Program-made: the position numbers and the translations under genes | Part shown: positions 2,611 to 56,481 of the stretch, piece after piece | Position numbering within the stretch: position 1 is the first letter of the stretch | Layout: every line of letters starts with the position of its first letter | The notes under the pieces: model-generated | The model's database searches: none | What the model was told of the DNA's origin: nothing | The model's input: the letters and a program-made list of their open reading frames with translations, nothing else | Virus record (IMG/VR): IMGVR_UViG_3300045988_159115 | DNA: 64,000 bases | Source of the DNA: a virus | Reading direction: 5' to 3' (one strand)

Positions 2611-4392
2611 ATGCTCAAATATATTGGAGAATACGTGTCCGACTTTGAGAAAGAACTTAATCGGCCTCTGATGACAAAAGAAGCTGATCTTCCTCTGGTC
2701 GAGTATATCAAGGATGTCTGGCGTTCTTTGGAGATCGTCAAGAACATCAAGATTCTGAGCTTCGAGTGGAATGACAACGAAGCGACGATCGACATCAATA
2801 ATCATATCTTCAAGCGCGAGAAAAAGAAGCGCAAGAAGGATCGCTATAACTACAAGTTCATCAATGATGATCGTTGTGGTTGCCTGACAGTATATGTCGA
2901 GATTACTGTCAAAGAAAATGATAGCCGGAATCCGGATGAACCGAAGATCCATAAGAAGATCATCAAGAAGCAGATGCTGATTCCTATTCAGGATGAGGAT
3001 GGGTTCTTCTATATCCGTGGCAAGCGCTATTATATGATTTATCAGCTCGTTGATAAATCTACATACACTTCGAATAACGCTGTTACTCTGAAGTCTCTGA
3101 TGCCTATCTGCGTGAAGCGCAATGGCATTAAGACAGACGAGATCGTTCGAAGTGAAAACACCGGTAAGGATGTAAACGGAATGCAGTATAACATTCCCGT
3201 TTATAACGTCTTCGTCTTCCGTAAGGAAATTCCCATCATGCTGTTCTATCTTGCAAACGGATGGGACTGGGCAATGTGCTATCTGGAAGTCGATAATGTC
3301 ATTCGTCTGGTGAAGAACCTCGATGATGCTAATTTCGAGAAGAATCTGTATTTCCAGATTTCCAGTCATTGCTTCATCGAGGCAAACAAGGAGATGTTCC
3401 TGAAGTACCCTTATATCCAGTCTGTGGTTGGTGGTCTTCTGACGATTTCCAATTCCAGAACTACGATGGATGATTTCCATGACCGTACGGTTTGGATCAA
3501 GGCGCTCTCAAACAACAACACCGTTGAGAAGGGTGAAGACATTCTGGTGTTCTTTAACCGTCTGATGGATGTTACCACTCGTAAGATTCTGAAGCTCAAC
3601 GATTACGAGAAGAATGACATCTATGCAATCCTTCGTTGGATGATGCAGAATTTCGGCACCCTCCGTATGAAGGATAACATGAGTCTTGAGAATAAGCGTC
3701 TTCGTTGCAATGAGTATATTGCATCGCTGCTGACTCTGGACTTCTCTTCTCGACTCAATTCTGTGATTACTCTTGGTAACAAGGCAACCATGGATAACTT
3801 CACAAACATGTTCCGCTTCACGGGTGAGATTCTGATCCAGAAGATGCATTCTTCTGGTATTCTCCGGTTCAATGATAATATGAATGATATGGACTTCTTC
3901 TCGAAGTTCAAGTATACTATCAAAGGACCTCATTCCATGGGCGGAAAGAATTCCAACAACATCTCGATTCGCTACCGTGGCTCTCATCCGAGCTTCCTTG
4001 GTAATATTGACCTTTTGGTTTGTGGTAACTCTGACCCTGGTACTTCCGGTGTCTTGAGTCCGTTTGGTAAAATCAAGGGCTTCTATTTCAACGATGAGAA
4101 TGAGACTGATGCGTTCCGGTTCGATTATGCAAAGGATTTGGAGCGTGTCCTCACGGAAGAGAACTTTGAGTATATCAAAATCAACTGTGCTACTAAGGAG
4201 GAGTATTATGCTCTTCTGAATAAGTTGGCAGACTTTAACGAGAATGCTATTAAGATCAATGGTACGTCTCGTGAAAAGTACGAAGTTGTTGTTGAGAAAG
4301 AAGACATGACATCTGGTTCTGATTCGGATGAGAAGGAAACTCAGGAAGAAGCTCCAGAGACTATTTCCGACACAACCGAAGATGATTCCTAA
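2611..4392 (+). CDS. multisubunit RNA polymerase beta-like subunit, N-terminal fragment
   Basis: SD AGGAGGAAG. DGFFYIRGKRYYMIYQLVDKS aligns with bacterial beta GTFIINGxERVIVSQL. IRYRGSHPSFLGNIDLLVCGNSDPGTSGVLSPFG aligns with VRDVHPSHYGRxCPIETPEGPNIGLI. The ORF ends shortly after this region, so it is a split beta. Confidence 0.75.
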   Translation: MLKYIGEYVSDFEKELNRPLMTKEADLPLVEYIKDVWRSLEIVKNIKILSFEWNDNEATIDINNHIFKREKKKRKKDRYNYKFINDDRCGCLTVYVEITVKENDSRNPDEPKIHKKIIKKQMLIPIQDEDGFFYIRGKRYYMIYQLVDKSTYTSNNAVTLKSLMPICVKRNGIKTDEIVRSENTGKDVNGMQYNIPVYNVFVFRKEIPIMLFYLANGWDWAMCYLEVDNVIRLVKNLDDANFEKNLYFQISSHCFIEANKEMFLKYPYIQSVVGGLLTISNSRTTMDDFHDRTVWIKALSNNNTVEKGEDILVFFNRLMDVTTRKILKLNDYEKNDIYAILRWMMQNFGTLRMKDNMSLENKRLRCNEYIASLLTLDFSSRLNSVITLGNKATMDNFTNMFRFTGEILIQKMHSSGILRFNDNMNDMDFFSKFKYTIKGPHSMGGKNSNNISIRYRGSHPSFLGNIDLLVCGNSDPGTSGVLSPFGKIKGFYFNDENETDAFRFDYAKDLERVLTEENFEYIKINCATKEEYYALLNKLADFNENAIKINGTSREKYEVVVEKEDMTSGSDSDEKETQEEAPETISDTTEDDS

Positions 4393-12724: not shown

Positions 12725-12742
12725 TTATAATGATATATTATA
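12725..12742 (+). promoter_or_regulatory. early-type promoter motif TTATAATGATATATTATA
   Basis: Identical 18-mer at 18416 and, on the minus strand, at 52599. It is oriented toward 12842-. Confidence 0.65.
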
Positions 12743-30970: not shown

Positions 30971-30974
30971 AACT

Positions 30975-31029
30975 AAAAAATAAGAACCAAGGTTTCTCGT
31001 ACTAGAGTGAACCTTGGTTCTTATTTTAC
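30975..31029 (+). terminator. intrinsic terminator
   Basis: 15-bp stem AATAAGAACCAAGGT / ACCTTGGTTCTTATT followed by TTT. Confidence 0.7.
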
Positions 31030-31067
31030 AAAAAAGAAGGGATACCTAGCTGGTTGCTAGGTCCCTT
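31030..31067 (-). terminator. conserved terminator family, copy C (minus strand)
   Basis: The minus strand reads AAGGGACCTAGCAACCAGCTAGGTATCCCTTCTTTTTT. It differs from copy B by a compensatory G-C / A-T pair. Confidence 0.7.
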
Positions 31068-31078
31068 GATCCCATGGA

Positions 31079-38199: not shown

Positions 38200-38216
38200 A
38201 TTAGTCCTTTGTTTTT
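38200..38216 (-). promoter_or_regulatory. ACA-N6-TAAT motif (AAAAACAAAGGACTAAT)
   Basis: Overlaps the 5' arm of the hairpin at 38171-38215; upstream of 38134. Confidence 0.5.
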
Positions 38217-42684: not shown

Positions 42685-42696
42685 TTATATATTATA
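42685..42696 (+). promoter_or_regulatory. early-type promoter motif TTATATATTATA
   Basis: Oriented toward 42750-42929. Confidence 0.6.
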
Positions 42697-42749
42697 TATG
42701 TGAGCGCAATTAGGATGATGGCTGTAATGTGAAAAGGAGGTATACTTAT

Positions 42750-49650: not shown

Positions 49651-51693
49651 TTAGACGTAATTGGAATTTGCAGAAATGCGGACGATCTCAGCATCCAGCT
49701 TATCCTTAATACGCATCATACGATACTTTTCGTTACGCATCTTCGGATCGCCAGACATATCTTCGATCTTTGCATTGACGACGGTCTTTTCTGCCTGAAG
49801 CTCACGGACTAACTCATTGCGGATACGAATATCCTTCTCATGAGAAAGCTTATGAGCGATAATCAGTACGATATTGAGAAGAGGATTGATTGCAAAAGCA
49901 ATACCATGCTCGATAGCAATCTTCAGTGCACGGAATACCTTCTTCCGACTACCGGGCTTAATGATGTATTCCTTACGCCGGTCATCATCCATCTCTTCCC
50001 AGCTATCAATCTGCTTTTTAATCATTCCATTGATGCCACTAGGAATTTTACCAGTAGCTTTTGCTGCATTCTTAGCATCAATGCTAGTACGTTTGATCTT
50101 GGAAAGATGCTTATGGAATTTTGCATTTGCATCCAGAGCCTTATTTTGGATTCTCTGGAAGAAAGGACGCTTTTGAGGCTTTTCAACTTCAATAGGCTTT
50201 GCCGAAACGTCTTCATCAGAAGACTTAGCGTCAGAAGTGGCATTGCCAGACTTATTGTCTTTTTCGTCTTCATCCTCTGACGCTTCGTTAAAATTGAAGT
50301 CGGAAATATCCATATTAGCATACTTTGCAGTTTGACGTGCCTTTGCAGCATCGCGATCAGCAGCTCGCTGATCATCAGACTTATTAGAAGATGAAGTATC
50401 AGGAGTATCCTCATCTTCATCATCTGTACCATCTTCATCGTCCTGGGAATCGAGAGTCTGATCGTCTTTCTTAATCTCAGAAGCCTTTGTGGGACGATAC
50501 ATCGGAAGTTCACCAGTTGTCTGAGCAACGACACGAGAGGCATCGCCATTAGACTTGAAGTATGATTCATAAGCAACCTGATACTCAGAATCAATCTTTT
50601 CAGACAGATCCTTCAGCATACCAACCTGCTCATTGATATCAGTGGGAATCTTTTTAATGGAAGAAGACTCAATGCAGAGCTGCTCCACAATCGGATCCCA
50701 GTTGGAAGTAGATTCAGCTGTGACACCGTAGATAGCATCCATCGCGAGGAAACTTTCGTTCATAGCAACGATTGCCTTCTCGCACATCAGGTTATGCATC
50801 TTCTCAACGGATTCACTCTCGTCGTAGATGCTACGATTTTCCAGATCATCAAAGATCTGATTTACGCTATTCTCACCTGTGGAAACCATCAGGTCATCAA
50901 CAGTGTGGGATTCCATCAGTGCTGAACTAATGAAGTCAGACTGATCTTCCTTGGCAAGACCCTTCAGAAGAGTACGGAGATTCATATTACCGAGAGAATT
51001 GACCTTCTCAGAAATATAGGAATCTCGCATCATGCGCTTAACCACGTTCGTAGTGTATGCATTCAGCTGATACTGCTTCGGAGTCTTCGGCTCAGCAACA
51101 ATTGCTTCCTCAGTAAGATAGCGATAGAGAGAACTACCATTCTTCTCAGGATTTGTGACGCCGAGTGTAATTGCATCAATCAGACGCAGACCCTTTGTCT
51201 TCTTAGAGAAGATGGGATTCTCACAACTTTCTTCAATGACGCCGTCATAACGATTAAAGCCGACATTGTAGAAAGTGTCATTTGCGTGAGTATTATCATG
51301 GAAAGTCTCATACATCATACGAGTATTCTCAGTAGATGTCATCTTTCTTTCCATGGTATTCATCAGATCAGTGTACTCAGTGATCATCGACATGCTCATC
51401 TTATCCTTATGAGCTTCGAAATACTTCTTCACCTTGTAATACTCTTCACTGATTCGTTCGTAGGGAATGACGCAACTTTCCATAAGGTCTTTATAGAAAG
51501 AGCATCCGCGCATCGGCTCCGTAAAGATATACTCAGACCCATCTAGAAGATCGGTCAGTGTCATTTCGCTGTAAAAGCTTTCATATTCGATCGCGTTATA
51601 CTTGGTATAGTCCCGCTTCAGCATTTCAAACTCTGCATGAAGTGCCTTCACAGGAGTACCGGTTAAGATCTTTTCTTTATTGAGTTCGATCAT
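49651..51693 (-). CDS. hypothetical virion-module protein with central acidic disordered region (680 aa)
   Basis: SD AAAGGGG; AACA-N6-TAAT motif at 51740-51756. It is the first gene of the operon that ends with the MCP candidate. Confidence 0.65.
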   Translation of the reverse strand: MIELNKEKILTGTPVKALHAEFEMLKRDYTKYNAIEYESFYSEMTLTDLLDGSEYIFTEPMRGCSFYKDLMESCVIPYERISEEYYKVKKYFEAHKDKMSMSMITEYTDLMNTMERKMTSTENTRMMYETFHDNTHANDTFYNVGFNRYDGVIEESCENPIFSKKTKGLRLIDAITLGVTNPEKNGSSLYRYLTEEAIVAEPKTPKQYQLNAYTTNVVKRMMRDSYISEKVNSLGNMNLRTLLKGLAKEDQSDFISSALMESHTVDDLMVSTGENSVNQIFDDLENRSIYDESESVEKMHNLMCEKAIVAMNESFLAMDAIYGVTAESTSNWDPIVEQLCIESSSIKKIPTDINEQVGMLKDLSEKIDSEYQVAYESYFKSNGDASRVVAQTTGELPMYRPTKASEIKKDDQTLDSQDDEDGTDDEDEDTPDTSSSNKSDDQRAADRDAAKARQTAKYANMDISDFNFNEASEDEDEKDNKSGNATSDAKSSDEDVSAKPIEVEKPQKRPFFQRIQNKALDANAKFHKHLSKIKRTSIDAKNAAKATGKIPSGINGMIKKQIDSWEEMDDDRRKEYIIKPGSRKKVFRALKIAIEHGIAFAINPLLNIVLIIAHKLSHEKDIRIRNELVRELQAEKTVVNAKIEDMSGDPKMRNEKYRMMRIKDKLDAEIVRISANSNYV

Positions 51694-52310: not shown

Positions 52311-52314
52311 AAAA

Positions 52315-52361
52315 TAAAAAAAAGATAGTAACCAATTTGCATTTGAGTTACTATCTTTTTT
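52315..52361. terminator. bidirectional terminator shared by 51819-52310 and the ncRNA candidate
   Basis: AAAAAAGATAGTAAC / GTTACTATCTTTTTT with A- and T-runs on both sides. Confidence 0.7.
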
Positions 52362-52385
52362 GCTTCCAAAGAGAAGTGATTGAAC
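52362..52385. repeat. left arm of perfect 24-bp inverted repeat GCTTCCAAAGAGAAGTGATTGAAC
   Basis: Exact reverse complement of 52531-52554. Confidence 0.95.
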
Positions 52386-52530
52386 TGATCCAGGCATAAC
52401 ACTTGTGTTCCATCCTCACCTCATCACTACTGTGAGAGGTATGAGCCGCGATATACTCTTTTCTTTTCCTTCATCATTATTAATGAAGGCAGCACCACGC
52501 CTATCATGAACACGTCGGTTTAACCCGGAA

Positions 52531-52554
52531 GTTCAATCACTTCTCTTTGGAAGC
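52531..52554. repeat. right arm of perfect 24-bp inverted repeat
   Basis: Exact reverse complement of 52362-52385. Confidence 0.95.
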
Positions 52555-52598
52555 GAATTAATTATAAGTACTTATGATACTTACTATTTATTCACATA

Positions 52599-52616
52599 TA
52601 TAATATATCATTATAA
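52599..52616 (-). promoter_or_regulatory. early-type promoter motif (minus strand TTATAATGATATATTATA) driving the ncRNA candidate
   Basis: Full 18-mer identical to the copies at 12725 and 18416. No ORF lies downstream before the terminator at 52361-52315. Confidence 0.6.
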
Positions 52617-52638
52617 TTTAAGGCTTTATCGTTAAAAT

Positions 52639-52673
52639 ACCACGGATGTACTCCGAAGAAATACATCCGTGGT
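52639..52673 (-). terminator. hairpin terminator of 53074-52772
   Basis: 12-bp stem ACCACGGATGTA / TACATCCGTGGT. On the minus strand it is followed by ATTTT. Confidence 0.55.
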
Positions 52674-52771
52674 TATACACAGAAACGCTTTGATAACAAA
52701 ATGTTTAGATAAAATCCATTATAAGCGAATAAAGTAAGTATATTAATCTAGTCCGTTATACTAGAAGAATA

Positions 52772-53074
52772 TCAAGTCTGTAAAGTCCAAGTTGCAGTGC
52801 TTAGATCGGTAATCGTTGACGCACATCGTCTTATTAATGTTTTATTACGATCGTCGGCGATAAAAATCTGGAAAGCCGTACCGTCGGTGTTAGTAAAACA
52901 CGCTCCATTTCCGACGCCAAAATTCTTATTAAGCTCATTATCTTTAGGCAGCCAAGTGTAACACCATCCTTTTGGTAGATCCGTAAGAGAATCATTTGGA
53001 CATACGTTTGGATAATTATCAATATTCAATTTTATGTCTTCATTTGAAGTTCTAAGCATAACCGATTTACTCAT
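52772..53074 (-). CDS. hypothetical Cys-containing small protein (100 aa), accessory
   Basis: ATG at 53074 is 9 nt after GAGG. Codon usage is atypical for the window (AT-rich third positions). It contains CPND..LPKGW. A hairpin terminator lies at 52639-52673. Confidence 0.55.
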   Translation of the reverse strand: MSKSVMLRTSNEDIKLNIDNYPNVCPNDSLTDLPKGWCYTWLPKDNELNKNFGVGNGACFTNTDGTAFQIFIADDRNKTLIRRCASTITDLSTATWTLQT

Positions 53075-53108
53075 TTTTTGATACCTCGGGCTTAGTACCT
53101 TCATCATC

Positions 53109-53137
53109 CTAACATATAATCAAAGATTATATGTTAG
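53109..53137. repeat. 29-nt palindrome P1 (13-bp stem, AAA loop) in the leader of the minus-strand gene
   Basis: CTAACATATAATCAAAGATTATATGTTAG. It is the inverted copy of P2, differing only by a paired T-A to G-C change. Confidence 0.9.
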
Positions 53138-53141
53138 CAAA

Positions 53142-53184
53142 AACGAGCCCAAAACTATTCAAATCAGGTAGTTTTGGGCTCGTT
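53142..53184 (-). terminator. 16-bp hairpin followed by a T-run on the minus strand (attenuator-like)
   Basis: AACGAGCCCAAAACTA / TAGTTTTGGGCTCGTT. On the minus strand it is followed by TTTTTG, directly before P1. Confidence 0.45.
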
Positions 53185-53198
53185 ACTGCGGCTCTTTT

Positions 53199-53239
53199 GC
53201 CTAGCAAGAATTCAGACAAAATGAATTCAAATGCTAGGC
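53199..53239. repeat. long imperfect hairpin (GCCTAGCA..GAATTCA / TGAATTC..TGCTAGGC)
   Basis: Two nested complementary blocks; no T-run on either side. Confidence 0.7.
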
Positions 53240-53260
53240 GTGTAGCGATAGTTATGATGA

Positions 53261-53272
53261 TAAAATATTGTT
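53261..53272 (-). promoter_or_regulatory. ACA-N6-TA motif (AACAATATTTTA) inside the structured divergent control region
   Basis: It points toward hairpin 53199-53239, terminator-like hairpin 53142-53184, P1 and gene 53074-52772. Confidence 0.35.
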
Positions 53273-53328
53273 AGTTTCGTTCAATAAAGAACGTAGCTAC
53301 GTTGAATAATATTCGTTGCCGAATATTA

Positions 53329-53357
53329 CTAACATATAAGCTTTGCTTATATGTTAG
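53329..53357. repeat. 29-nt palindrome P2 (13-bp stem, TTT loop) in the leader of the plus-strand gene
   Basis: CTAACATATAAGCTTTGCTTATATGTTAG, preceded by an 8-bp hairpin (53308-53327) and a 14-nt palindrome (53290-53303). Confidence 0.9.
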
Positions 53358-53385
53358 GATGGTGCATGCTATGGAGGTTTATTCC

Positions 53386-53784
53386 ATGAGCATTGCAACT
53401 GGTGATAAAAAAATTAGCTTGAGAGTAGGCGGAAAGGACCTAGCTCTAAACGATGGATTTCCATTATCAAATCCAGAAGATTTTAAGCATACACAACTTG
53501 AATCTAGAATAACTGATAGTTTATATGATAATGAAAAAACTCAATATCGACCAACATTTTCTACAAACGAGCTACATGATAATTTACTTGAATTTGAAAA
53601 TTCACGGACTAACGTAATATGCGGCGTTGGTATCGGAACAAGCGGAACCAATCACGGTATTTATAGTTCGTCTTGTCAAAGAGACTGCCCGAATGATGGT
53701 TGGCTTATACGAGCAACAGATACTGGATCAGTATACATCTACGGAAAACTTATCAGAGATTCAAAAGGTAATTGGTATATATAA
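53386..53784 (+). CDS. hypothetical Cys-containing small protein (132 aa), accessory; fibre-tip-like C-terminus
   Basis: ATG at 53386 is 8 nt after GGAGG. Codon usage is atypical. It contains CPNDGW; the C-terminus NHGIYSSS..GWLIRATDTGSVYIYGKLIRDSKGNWYI is reminiscent of fibre distal domains, but the resemblance is weak. Confidence 0.55.
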   Translation: MSIATGDKKISLRVGGKDLALNDGFPLSNPEDFKHTQLESRITDSLYDNEKTQYRPTFSTNELHDNLLEFENSRTNVICGVGIGTSGTNHGIYSSSCQRDCPNDGWLIRATDTGSVYIYGKLIRDSKGNWYI

Positions 53785-53835
53785 TAAAAAGAAGCTACCT
53801 GCATTTCTTAATTGGATTTGCAGGTAGCTTCTTTT

Positions 53836-54375
53836 TTACTCTTTGATCTGTTCGAGGGGCTTCACGTTATCGTTGATGTAGGTTGCAAACCGATAATTGA
53901 GACCAGTCTTTTCATCATGACGATAATTCGGGAAGGTATCAATCATCATCCACCAATTCTTTTTCTGATGCAGATTCGGGAAGAATGCATCTGCATCAGG
54001 GGCTTCTTTATCAATGTAGGTCACATATGCTGTGCTACAATAGTCAATGAGTTCGTTATATAAACTATCTCCTCCAATCAGGTATACTTCCTCAGGAGGG
54101 TACATAGAAATGAGATCTTTTAATTCTTCCATGGTATTCACAATGATTGCATCTTTGGAATCCACATGGTAGTTTTTATCGTGAGTCAAAATGATATTGA
54201 CTCGTTTTGCAAGAGGCTTCTTGAACGGGAAAGATTCAAAGGTCTTTCGACCCATTACAACAACGTGTCCCATTGTCAACTCTTTGAATCTAGCCATGTC
54301 ATCCTTGATGTGGAAAAGAAGCTTATTATTCTTGCCAATTCCCCAGTTATTACTGACGGCAACAATAGCTCGCAT
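53836..54375 (-). CDS. folA: dihydrofolate reductase
   Basis: MRAIVAVSNNWGIGKNNKLLFHIKDDMARFKELT..VVMGRKTFESF..KRVNIILT..YLIGGDSLY are canonical DHFR motifs. ATG 54396 is an alternative start. Confidence 0.85.
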   Translation of the reverse strand: MRAIVAVSNNWGIGKNNKLLFHIKDDMARFKELTMGHVVVMGRKTFESFPFKKPLAKRVNIILTHDKNYHVDSKDAIIVNTMEELKDLISMYPPEEVYLIGGDSLYNELIDYCSTAYVTYIDKEAPDADAFFPNLHQKKNWWMMIDTFPNYRHDEKTGLNYRFATYINDNVKPLEQIKE

Positions 54376-54512
54376 TGGTATCACCAGTCCTTCCATTTTA
54401 ATAGATAATTTCTAGGGGTCACTTAGCTAAGTGTCTGAGTTGATATAAATAAGAAGACTAGACGAGGAAAAATCCTTATCTAGTCTTCTTTTCGTATCTC
54501 CTCTAGTTTCAG

Positions 54513-54524
54513 TTATATGTTATA
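54513..54524 (+). promoter_or_regulatory. variant early-type motif TTATATGTTATA
   Basis: One mismatch to the 12-mer; oriented toward the 49-aa ORF. Confidence 0.4.
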
Positions 54525-54554
54525 ATGGCATATAAAGAAAAGGAGGTGATACTC

Positions 54555-54704
54555 ATGCATACATTTTTCAATGATGCATTTGCAGCGGCATATGCTGCGT
54601 GCACAGGGAAGATGCTTGTTCTCGAACCGGAGAACTCGACAGATGCTACCATCAATTACGATAGTAGTGCTACGTCGGAACCTATCCGGATCCTGAATAG
54701 GTAA
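54555..54704 (+). CDS. stand-alone small protein (49 aa)
   Basis: Strong SD AAAGGAGGTG 6 nt upstream. A variant early-type motif lies at 54513-54524 and a terminator at 54718-54764. Translated by hand. Confidence 0.5.
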   Translation: MHTFFNDAFAAAYAACTGKMLVLEPENSTDATINYDSSATSEPIRILNR

Positions 54705-54717
54705 CCCGACACCCAGG

Positions 54718-54764
54718 AAAGAAAGACTAGGTCTAGAACCACTGGATCTAGTCTTTCTTTTTTG
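54718..54764. terminator. bidirectional terminator
   Basis: AAAGAAAGACTAG / CTAGTCTTTCTTT followed by a T-run. Confidence 0.65.
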
Positions 54765-55835: not shown

Positions 55836-55903
55836 ATGCTGAAGAATAAGAAGGAGAAGAAGAGTAGCCTTCATGGATTAGTTTCTAAAAGGAGGAAACT
55901 ACT

Positions 55904-56107
55904 ATGATGTGTTCTTACACTGTAAAATATCATGATTATGCAACGGTGCCTATTGGTGAAGTTGCAAGTCCTGATTCCTATGGAACCATTCAAGAGTACG
56001 TGAGCTGGGAGGGCGCCAGCACGGCCATCGTCAATGAAGCGGCCAACTTCATGAATGAGCTTGACTATGCTCACATTGACAGGATCAAAAAACCTTCATC
56101 ACTGTAA
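55904..56107 (+). CDS. small protein, paralog of 56212-56481; its homologous C-terminus lies in the -1 frame (to 56193)
   Basis: It shares an identical 18-nt SD/start context with the paralog and the NEAANFM / KEAANFL motifs. The -1 frame after the A6 run (56087-56092) encodes ITVKYYEGKIDRYRRFYFENC, which matches the paralog's IKINYEQDKPVQKSQFFVVTDC. Confidence 0.55.
   Translation: MMCSYTVKYHDYATVPIGEVASPDSYGTIQEYVSWEGASTAIVNEAANFMNELDYAHIDRIKKPSSL
56087..56092 (+). other. A6 homopolymer at the frame junction (possible -1 slip site or indel)
   Basis: atc aaa aaa cct in frame 0. The -1 frame stays open from here to the TAA at 56191-56193. Confidence 0.4.
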
Positions 56108-56211
56108 AGTACTATGAAGGAAAGATCGACCGCTACCGTCGGTTCTACTTCGAAAACTGCGATGACGGTGATGTGGATGATATGGAAGATTAATATAAGG
56201 AGGAAACTACT

Positions 56212-56481
56212 ATGGATGCTTATTACAGTCTCATGGCTGCAACCGATACGTACGATCGGGCAGCTAATAAGTCCGTTAACGGTAAGTTTACTGTCATTAC
56301 CGAATCCGATTCTTACCAGGAAACTTATACGCGGCTTATCAAAGAAGCCGCAAACTTTCTCGCTACGCATGCTGGTAGCGTGGTTGGGGTCATGATGGAG
56401 AACTGTATCAAAATCAATTACGAACAGGATAAACCTGTTCAAAAGTCTCAGTTCTTTGTGGTGACTGATTGTATGCCGTAA
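56212..56481 (+). CDS. small protein (89 aa), paralog of 55904
   Basis: SD AAGGAGGAAACTACT-ATG identical to that of the paralog; conserved terminator hairpin at 56487-56525. Confidence 0.65.
   Translation: MDAYYSLMAATDTYDRAANKSVNGKFTVITESDSYQETYTRLIKEAANFLATHAGSVVGVMMENCIKINYEQDKPVQKSQFFVVTDCMP

Follow-up and report, generated by a model that had tools for sequence, protein, structure and literature searches.

The DNA considered here is a window of 64,000 nucleotides (nt) from a virus (IMG/VR record IMGVR_UViG_3300045988_159115). Within it, a gap of 311 base pairs (bp) separates two small, divergently transcribed genes encoding proteins of 100 and 132 amino acids (aa). Comparison with related loci leads to the view that this gap is a real, selectively maintained and structured control region, bordered by two genes that are hypervariable alleles at a fixed locus. 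The reading that we favour, tentatively, is that of a conserved control region serving two fast-diversifying genes, in which a promoter-operator/leader module is present twice, a late transcription unit lies in the centre, and the whole block also acts as a recombination linker. From left to right, the locus has the following features, "P1" and "P2" denoting its two 29-nt palindromes:

52639-52673, minus strand: terminator-like hairpin 3′ of the 100-aa gene, with a 12-bp perfect stem followed by AUUUUAA; conserved outer flank of the left cassette
52772-53074, minus strand: 100-aa gene; first ~20 residues conserved, body hypervariable; 57 homologues at 55-100% identity
53075-53108, minus strand: leader of the 100-aa gene; GAGGT Shine-Dalgarno, predicted +1 G at 53102; nearly invariant in the 13 relatives
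53109-53137, no strand: P1, CTAACATATAATCAAAGATTATATGTTAG; perfect 13-3-13 palindrome, invariant in 13/13 relatives
53137-53189, minus strand: hairpin 1; 16-bp stem (53142-53157/53169-53184), 11-nt loop, then U5
53199-53239, minus strand: hairpin 2; nested, 8 + 7 bp, stems invariant and loop variable; body of the predicted RNA
53261-53272, minus strand: late promoter motif AACA-N6-TA, predicted start A 53261
53290-53303, no strand: 14-nt palindrome AACGTAGCTACGTT; a single variant in one relative
53308-53327, no strand: hairpin 4; 8-bp stem, 4-nt loop; loop flipped in relative L005, and in L014 relative to L015
53329-53357, no strand: P2, CTAACATATAAGCTTTGCTTATATGTTAG; perfect 13-3-13 palindrome, invariant in 13/13 relatives
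53358-53385, plus strand: leader of the 132-aa gene; GGAGGT Shine-Dalgarno, predicted +1 G at 53364
53386-53784, plus strand: 132-aa gene; first 33 residues conserved, middle hypervariable, C-terminal beta domain ~58-127
53786-53836, no strand: bidirectional terminator; 18-bp perfect stem with A-run and T-run, common to the DHFR gene; conserved outer flank of the right cassette

The comparison set consists of 13 distinct loci from related phage contigs of ~260 kilobases (kb), which over 6.4 kb are 92-97% identical overall to the window. Gene order is unchanged in all of them, the pair occupies the same place in each, and the length of the gap varies by at most one base, owing to an indel in a T-run beside the start codon of the 100-aa gene. 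Nucleotide diversity (π) in the gap is 0.035, and falls to 0 in P1, in P2 and in most of both leaders; in the neighbouring genes, synonymous divergence (dS) amounts to 0.20-0.27. The structure evaluated on the 13-sequence alignment comprises seven helices with 70 pairs, 68 of which are constant. One further pair departs in a single relative, and one covaries: pair 53148/53178 of hairpin 1 changes from C-G to T-A, and both single-step intermediates are present among the relatives. Variation affects 3 of the 140 stem columns and 36 of the 171 unpaired ones (Fisher p 1.6e-7), and the contrast is kept when the flipped loops described below are left aside (p 1e-4). Hence, nearly every stem nucleotide of the six palindromes and hairpins is under purifying selection. 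The constraint on stems supports the initial annotation of the sequence where it described the gap as a selectively maintained, structured control region. Its further statement that no other intergenic region of the window is so structured does not hold, as the adjacent gap 52311-52771 has an equal folding z-score (about -10 to -11) and the short terminator gap 30971-31078 has more folding energy per nt than the 311-bp gap.

The hairpins also record a particular mode of mutation. In L005, the loops of hairpin 1 (53158-53168) and hairpin 4 (53316-53319), located at 2690-3000 of that locus, are the exact reverse complements of the usual ones, with the stems kept. Likewise, L014 and L015 differ in hairpin 4 by having loops that are the reverse complement of one another. 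Flips of this kind are a mark of template switching or of recombination within hairpins, and show that such a process acts on this DNA.

The two 29-nt palindromes, proposed at the outset to be inverted copies standing before the two start codons, are found exactly there. In a degenerate form, their pattern occurs in the 64-kb window at P1 and P2 alone, and in none of 100 shuffles. Each forms the core of one arm of a 39-nt inverted repeat (53102-53140 versus 53326-53364), the arms being 90% complementary. In the direction of the adjacent gene, the unit has the sequence TT[G/A]CTAACATATAA[T/G]CTTTG[A/C]TTATATGTTAGGATG[A/G]TG, with the loop reading TTT in both copies, and the start codon follows 34 nt past P1 and 28 nt past P2, each behind a strong Shine-Dalgarno site. 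An in-frame ATG also occurs directly after GTTAGG in both genes (53107 and 53359). As had been noticed, the stems of the two copies differ at a single position changed on both arms, T-A in P1 and G-C in P2. This difference had been taken as proof that pairing is preserved by selection, and further covariation was to be sought in relatives. None is seen, neither palindrome varying among the 13 genomes, so that the difference amounts to a single event and not to covariation. Moreover, since loops flip, arms may be copied onto one another by mutation alone, and such hairpin-templated mutation weakens the argument for pairing selection. The loops of P1 and P2 themselves are unflipped in 26 of 26 copies, while the 8-bp hairpin 4 has flipped at least twice; this is modest evidence for a functional directionality of the palindromes.

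The likeness of the two units goes past the palindrome on the gene side, into the leader and, weakly, into the N-terminal codons. At the protein level, the similarity of the N-termini is weak (pattern K..LR....D..LN.D..P); its score is reached in 0 of 20,000 shuffles of the N-terminal segments, and hhalign gives an E-value of 0.01 with a low probability. Both N-termini, together with the 39-43 nt upstream, look like the products of an ancient duplication in inverted orientation that took in promoter, leader and N-terminus, and by which each palindrome would therefore be tied to its adjacent gene. On the other hand, a motif CPND..GW, reported earlier in both proteins, cannot sustain their relatedness. 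CPND is conserved in neither family, only the G-W being so; homology through CPND is rejected, the whole proteins not being detectably homologous through the motif.

To interpret these elements, the nature of the phage has to be considered. Proteins identical to the pair are found on a metagenome contig of 259,873 bp. The window encodes a large terminase, a major head protein, a tail sheath, SbcC, a DNA polymerase, ThyA and DHFR, as well as a split RNA polymerase (RNAP) beta subunit (phrog_2962, E 4.6e-73). The sole cultured relatives of the major capsid (head) protein are in the Bacillus phages AR9 and PBS1 and in Staphylococcus jumbo phages, at 23-24% identity. Because of the split beta subunit and of these head-protein relatives, the source is assigned to an uncultured jumbo phage of the AR9/phiKZ type, of ~260 kb, which should transcribe its genes with its own multisubunit virion and non-virion RNAPs (vRNAP and nvRNAP). 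Protein searches recovered 48 cluster representatives for the 132-aa protein and 57 for the 100-aa protein, many of them on contigs of 255-266 kb. In cultured phages, near and distant DNA searches and tblastn with the region, both small proteins and the 680-aa neighbour gave no match, nor did scans of IMG/VR and of GTDB genomes. A sister clade lacking the pair was sought through a 163-aa neighbour, which recovered the same clade alone. With Rfam, the region gave nothing at gathering score, and at E<1 chance-level matches alone.

The promoters of this phage appear to follow the grammar described for AR9. Enrichment of k-mers in upstream regions yields ATATATTAT(A), with 15 exact sites, all intergenic, mostly followed after six nt by a purine, usually G (8 of 13 window sites have G and 5 of 13 have A). 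It corresponds to the core of the early consensus of AR9, AAATATATATTAT-N6-G (PMC5312081). The late consensus of AR9, AACA-N6-TA/G (PMC5312081, PMC5449584), also recurs: the density of AACA-N6-T[AG] in intergenic DNA is four times that in coding DNA, specifically with the six-nt spacer, and it is TA alone that is strongly enriched, AACA-N6-TA having 16 intergenic and 12 coding sites (8.7-fold by density). Early motifs are exemplified at 12733, 18424, 42687, 46126 and 60456, and late ones at 38213, 44976, 45216 and 51753; good late copies precede the head (capsid), sheath, virion-protein and 680-aa genes. A scan for sigma-70 promoters gave fewer matches than shuffles. The analogy with AR9 has its limits, as the two phages are distant. 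AR9 has uracil-containing DNA, and promoters must contain uracil to be used by its late polymerase. In contrast, the present phage encodes ThyA and DHFR, so that the uracil dependence of the AR9 nvRNAP may not apply here.

How do the palindromes fit this grammar? The gene-side arm TTATATGTTAG lies at 53119-53109 on the minus strand in P1 and at 53347-53357 on the plus strand in P2. It agrees with a TT-flavoured form of the early core, TTATATATTAT, at 9 of 11 positions, and in both copies a G stands exactly six nt after it (53102, minus; 53364, plus), as in the AR9 early promoter. The two mismatches, which also separate it from AR9, mean that the arm is not an instance of the exact AT-rich core ATATATTAT. 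Scored with a position weight matrix, P1 ranks 24th of 128,000 positions. The A-to-G change of the arm recurs in a core, TTATATGTTAT, at 54513-54523 before the neighbouring 49-aa gene, which forms another variable island; as this core is conserved between variable flanks, a G-variant core is probably functional in this phage. The leader that follows the early promoter at 42687 (window 42687-42730) contains TTAGGATGATGG and has an 11-mer, TTAGGATGATG, in common with the sequence following P1.

Between the palindromes, the four further elements listed in the initial annotation (53142-53184, 53199-53239, 53290-53303 and 53308-53327) are all present. The site first described as ACA-N6-TA proves to be a perfect AR9-type late motif, AACAATATTTTA, on the minus strand, its AACA occupying 53272-53269 and its TA 53262-53261. 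Both of these parts stay unchanged in the 13 relatives, whereas the N6 spacer and a patch upstream of the motif (53274-53283) form the most variable part of the gap. Downstream, as had been proposed, a terminator-like hairpin separates this site from P1. Hairpin 1 has a stable, G+C-containing stem followed by UUUUU downstream of a promoter motif, and the 55-nt element folds as DNA with -18.7 kcal/mol. It may thus be read as an intrinsic terminator for leftward transcripts, missed by a consensus terminator scanner because its loop is 11 nt. An RNA running from 53261 to this terminator would be about 125-126 nt long and would contain two hairpins (-52.5 kcal/mol, z -8.3). Its role would be that of a small late RNA or, alternatively, of an attenuated leader preceding the 100-aa gene, which keeps the initial suggestion of a short RNA or attenuated leader plausible. 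Pairing of the 5′ end of this RNA, AUCAUCAUAAC, with the GUUAGGAUGRU foot of both leaders was considered and rejected, as 53% and 73% of shuffles pair equally well. A 47-aa open reading frame (ORF) at 53131-53274 was also discarded as coding: its stop varies among relatives, and variation in the segment tracks stems and loops, not codons. The same evidence rejects as coding the 217-225-aa gene-caller proteins P0005, P0011, P0021 and P0039. These start at the ATG inside P1 and cross the gap into the 132-aa gene (window 53131-53784) in relatives where the TAG at 53272-53274 is TAT, and are probably annotation artefacts.

On both sides of this nearly invariant block, the genes vary strongly. Within the gene bodies, identity of the relatives to the window falls to 55-80% for the 100-aa gene and to 27-94% for the 132-aa gene. 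Nucleotide diversity reaches 0.264 and 0.34, respectively, against 0.04-0.065 in neighbouring genes; on the left, it drops from 0.26 within the 100-aa gene to 0.06-0.09 in the outer flank. Nonsynonymous divergence (dN) is 0.226 for the 100-aa gene and 0.17 for the 132-aa gene, about 20 times the 0.01-0.025 of the neighbours. The ratio dN/dS is 0.47 and 0.41, compared with 0.04-0.10 in neighbours, and is ~0.85 in the most variable ten-codon blocks. The 132-aa gene falls into two deep allele classes with 32-37% identity between them. Across the 13 loci, allele similarities at the two genes are uncorrelated (Spearman rho -0.06); for instance, between L006 and L009 the identity is 96% for the 100-aa protein and 35% for the 132-aa protein. 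Because of this lack of correlation, the two cassettes must have recombined independently across the conserved block, which extends from ~53011 to 53484 and takes in both N-terminal coding parts. The alleles thus assort independently, with recombination in or beside this block.

A foreign, moron-like origin had been proposed for the pair from its codon usage. The usage is indeed atypical: the G+C content at third codon positions (GC3), 0.22 and 0.31, gives the two lowest values of ~70 ORFs, most others in the window being at ~0.35-0.50, and the codons TTA, CTA, AGA and ATA are in excess. Fast evolution under weak codon selection accounts for the low GC3 just as well as a foreign source does. 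Presence or absence in relatives speaks against the latter, since both genes occur at the same position and in the same gene order in 13/13; they are hypervariable alleles and not insertions. Mutagenesis by a diversity-generating retroelement is unsupported. The 64-kb window contains neither a template repeat nor a second copy of either gene, and variation covers the whole gene body.

The nature of the two proteins is approached mainly through the 132-aa one. Neither protein matches Pfam, PHROG or NCBIfam, and the 132-aa protein has no sequence match in the PDB. AlphaFold predicts for the latter a confident beta domain at ~60-132 behind a disordered N-terminus. Foldseek gives nothing significant with this model (best E 0.026 in BFVD and 1.3 in PDB); among the non-significant viral matches, fibre proteins crowd the top of the list. 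A profile search of 1.8 billion representatives, in turn, finds residues ~58-127 as a unit present five times in a 1312-aa protein, P0108 (E 2.8e-13), and twice in a 491-aa protein, P0109 (E 1.2e-10). Both proteins match several PHROG tail-fibre families along the unit-bearing stretches, and for one of them there is also a weak match to a putative tail fibre of solved structure. Pairwise alignment of the 132-aa protein with the repeat unit displays GVG.GSSG.NHG.YS...W.I (BLASTP E 3e-6). By this transitive profile match, the C-terminal domain (~58-127) is homologous to a tail-fibre repeat module, in line with the fibre-type fold guessed from the sequence. For the 100-aa protein, the AlphaFold2 model, with a mean predicted local distance difference test score (pLDDT) of 53, is too uncertain for a fold search.

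Taken together, these data suggest the following model. A single cis-acting module would be present twice, as P1 and as P2, each copy serving the gene next to it. In each copy, the gene-side arm (TTATATGTTAG, N6, G) would most likely be a variant of the early-type promoter of the phage, and the perfect dyad laid over it most likely an operator or a structure-forming element co-regulating both genes. The centre would constitute its own late transcription unit, made of the AACA-N6-TA start at 53261 (minus strand), hairpin 2 and the terminator at 53189-53137. Its output would be the ~125-nt RNA or, upon read-through, a long-leader late mRNA for the 100-aa gene. At the same time, the control block would double as a recombination linker for two diversifying, fibre-related cassettes. 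Because a conserved N-terminus is combined with a variable body and a fibre module, the proteins may be envisaged as virion- or fibre-associated specificity factors, the N-termini docking on a common partner and the variable bodies tracking host diversity.

Several observations weigh against this model. All promoter, start-site and terminator assignments are made by motif only. P1 scores 10.8 bits, compared with 20-34 at true early sites, and P2 is outside the top 45; the AR9 vRNAP is reported to be intolerant of changes to its consensus (PMC5312081). No AACA-N6-TA motif faces the 132-aa gene, though a fibre-related gene would be expected to be late, and no regulator of the dyads was identified. 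On the protein side, the link to fibres is transitive, direct PHROG, Pfam and PDB searches being empty and Foldseek non-significant, and the full-length similarity of the two proteins is weak (59 of 5000 shuffles; hhalign probability 4%).

The best surviving alternative, possible though on the unlikely side, is that of the initial annotation and places the palindromes at the RNA level. In this case, both mRNAs would start upstream of the palindromes, at 53261 for the 100-aa gene. P1 and P2 would be hairpins of the 5′ untranslated regions that stabilise the mRNA, direct its processing or bind a protein, and read-through into the 100-aa gene would be gated by hairpin 1 as an attenuator. A perfect late motif followed by a terminator does stand upstream of P1 on the correct strand. 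Compared with shuffles, both strands of the region fold far more stably (z -10.9 and -12.9), the stems are kept whereas their loops vary, and the loop would be UUU in both mRNAs. However, no motif of the early or late class is found upstream of P2 on the plus strand. P1 and P2, being invariant, offer no covariation. The leader of the 100-aa gene would measure 187 nt, far more than the 17-90 nt at other late motifs of the window, and the hairpins do not overlap the ribosome-binding sites.

It may also be imagined, with less likelihood, that the block is mainly a recombination linker, homogenised by frequent homologous exchange and gene conversion, with the palindromes as by-products of hairpin-templated mutation. 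The independent assortment of the flanking alleles, the template switching or intra-hairpin recombination shown by the loop flips, and the extension of conservation to synonymous sites in the first 10-20 codons of both genes all agree with this idea. Nevertheless, homogenisation fails to explain why, within 311 bp, variation is barred from stems and tolerated in loops and linkers. It also leaves unexplained the conserved promoter cores beside variable flanks.

A third possibility, which we regard as improbable, is that the palindromes are late promoters directed inward. Read toward the centre, they contain AACA-N6-CA, with starts at 53122 (plus) and 53344 (minus), on the first A of the loop. 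Each gene would then be expressed from the distal palindrome, and the ~265-nt leaders would overlap as antisense partners, with mutual interference. For the AR9 nvRNAP, positions -11 to -8 and a purine at +1 are essential and position -1 is less important (PMC5449584); the inward sites satisfy the former and differ only at the latter. Besides, the asymmetric loop provides a +1 purine in the inward direction only, and the CA variant is second in intergenic enrichment (2.5-fold). Against this, the enrichment is specific to TA, and P1 and P2 themselves account for 2 of the 5 intergenic CA sites. The leftward transcript would run into the terminator at 53189-53137, and the duplicated unit extends on the gene side of the palindromes, which links them to the adjacent genes.

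More speculative still, and improbable to a slightly higher degree, is the idea that P1 and P2 are structure-dependent promoters or operators, the 13-bp dyads being extruded as hairpins or cruciforms and read in this form by the multisubunit RNAP of the phage. The virion RNA polymerase of phage N4 uses hairpin promoters with stems of 5-7 bp and a start ~11 nt from the loop centre. The present elements resemble them in being perfect, promoter-associated hairpins with a 3-nt loop, purine-rich on the template strand, in a phage encoding its polymerase, but their stems have 13 bp and the polymerase families are unrelated. The AR9 polymerase reads single-stranded template DNA (PMC5449584). If this idea were true, the expression of two diversifying, fibre-associated specificity proteins would be coupled to the topological or replicative state of the genome, and a counterpart of the N4 hairpin promoters would exist for multisubunit polymerases.

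In invertible promoter switches, as in the tail-fibre switches Mu Gin and P1 Cin, inverted repeats bracket a short segment carrying a promoter, between alternative tail-fibre-related genes. Here too, 39-nt inverted repeats surround a short segment with one oriented promoter between divergent fibre-related genes, and small hairpin-mediated inversions do happen in the region; yet a switch like fimS, hin or cwpV, in which recombination at P1 and P2 would flip the ~190-bp centre and redirect the late promoter, is very improbable, because the centre is collinear and in the same orientation in 13/13 independent assemblies (the inversion of 53138-53328 that the initial annotation envisaged is seen in 0/13), P1 keeps T-A and P2 keeps G-C in all 13, so that arms have not been exchanged, a terminator would stand between promoter and gene in either orientation, and no recombinase was found among the ~45 proteins scanned in the 64-kb window of this ~260-kb genome.

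Returning to the favoured model of a duplicated promoter-operator module, the closest known arrangement appears to be, by analogy, the PeSL promoter-terminator cassette. In T4-type phages, a composite of stem-loop terminator and promoter borders small, fast-changing ORFs, and this motif provides the homology for modular shuffling (PMC2839356, PMC4122927). As in PeSLs, a hairpin with a T-run (hairpin 1) abuts P1, and the flanking alleles assort independently, as expected for shuffling. PeSLs are dispersed, with many copies per genome, and carry early promoters for the host sigma-70 (PMC2839356, PMC4122927). In contrast, the present element is not a dispersed multicopy one, as it has two copies only in 64 kb and none in IMG/VR. 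Furthermore, the phage has its own RNAPs, and a perfect 29-nt palindrome encloses the promoter-like core. As for the proteins, hypervariable adhesins and receptor-binding tips of the T-even gp38 type have a conserved N-terminal anchor. The two proteins resemble them by their conserved N-terminus, their variable glycine-rich body, their allelic diversity among near-identical phages and, for the 132-aa protein, the fibre-type module. They are much smaller than gp38, and no sequence match or significant structural match relates them to it. Overall, the locus represents an uncommon form of the gene shuffling and promoter layouts already known from phages, and not a new kind of system.

The locus is of interest because it brings regulation together with diversification: two hypervariable cassettes, of which one at least is tail-fibre-related, sit on an almost invariant control block. 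The AR9-type early and late grammar extends to a distant gut or environmental lineage encoding ThyA and DHFR, which bears on promoter recognition by non-canonical polymerases. Should the proteins prove to be specificity factors, host range within the clade might be predicted from their alleles. The conserved block would be a handle to track or engineer cassette exchange in laboratory phage-host tests.

Some observations concern the surroundings of the locus. The 680-aa protein (49651-51693, minus strand) has a long acidic, serine-rich stretch of low complexity and adjoins the head gene cluster; its gene has a late-promoter motif upstream at 51753-51742, no family match and none in cultured phages. 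An exact early core ATATATTAT at 52608-52600 (minus strand), followed after N6 by G 52593, faces a 270-nt ORF-less stretch that ends at a bidirectional terminator (52318-52361), thereby defining a candidate early non-coding RNA (52318-52608, minus strand) with no Rfam match. Finally, two other hypervariable islands occur nearby. The first, at 54456-54742, holds the 49-aa gene (54555-54704) behind its conserved TTATATGTTAT core. The second, at 55839-56480, shows presence/absence and replacement of small ORFs among relatives that are 92-97% identical.

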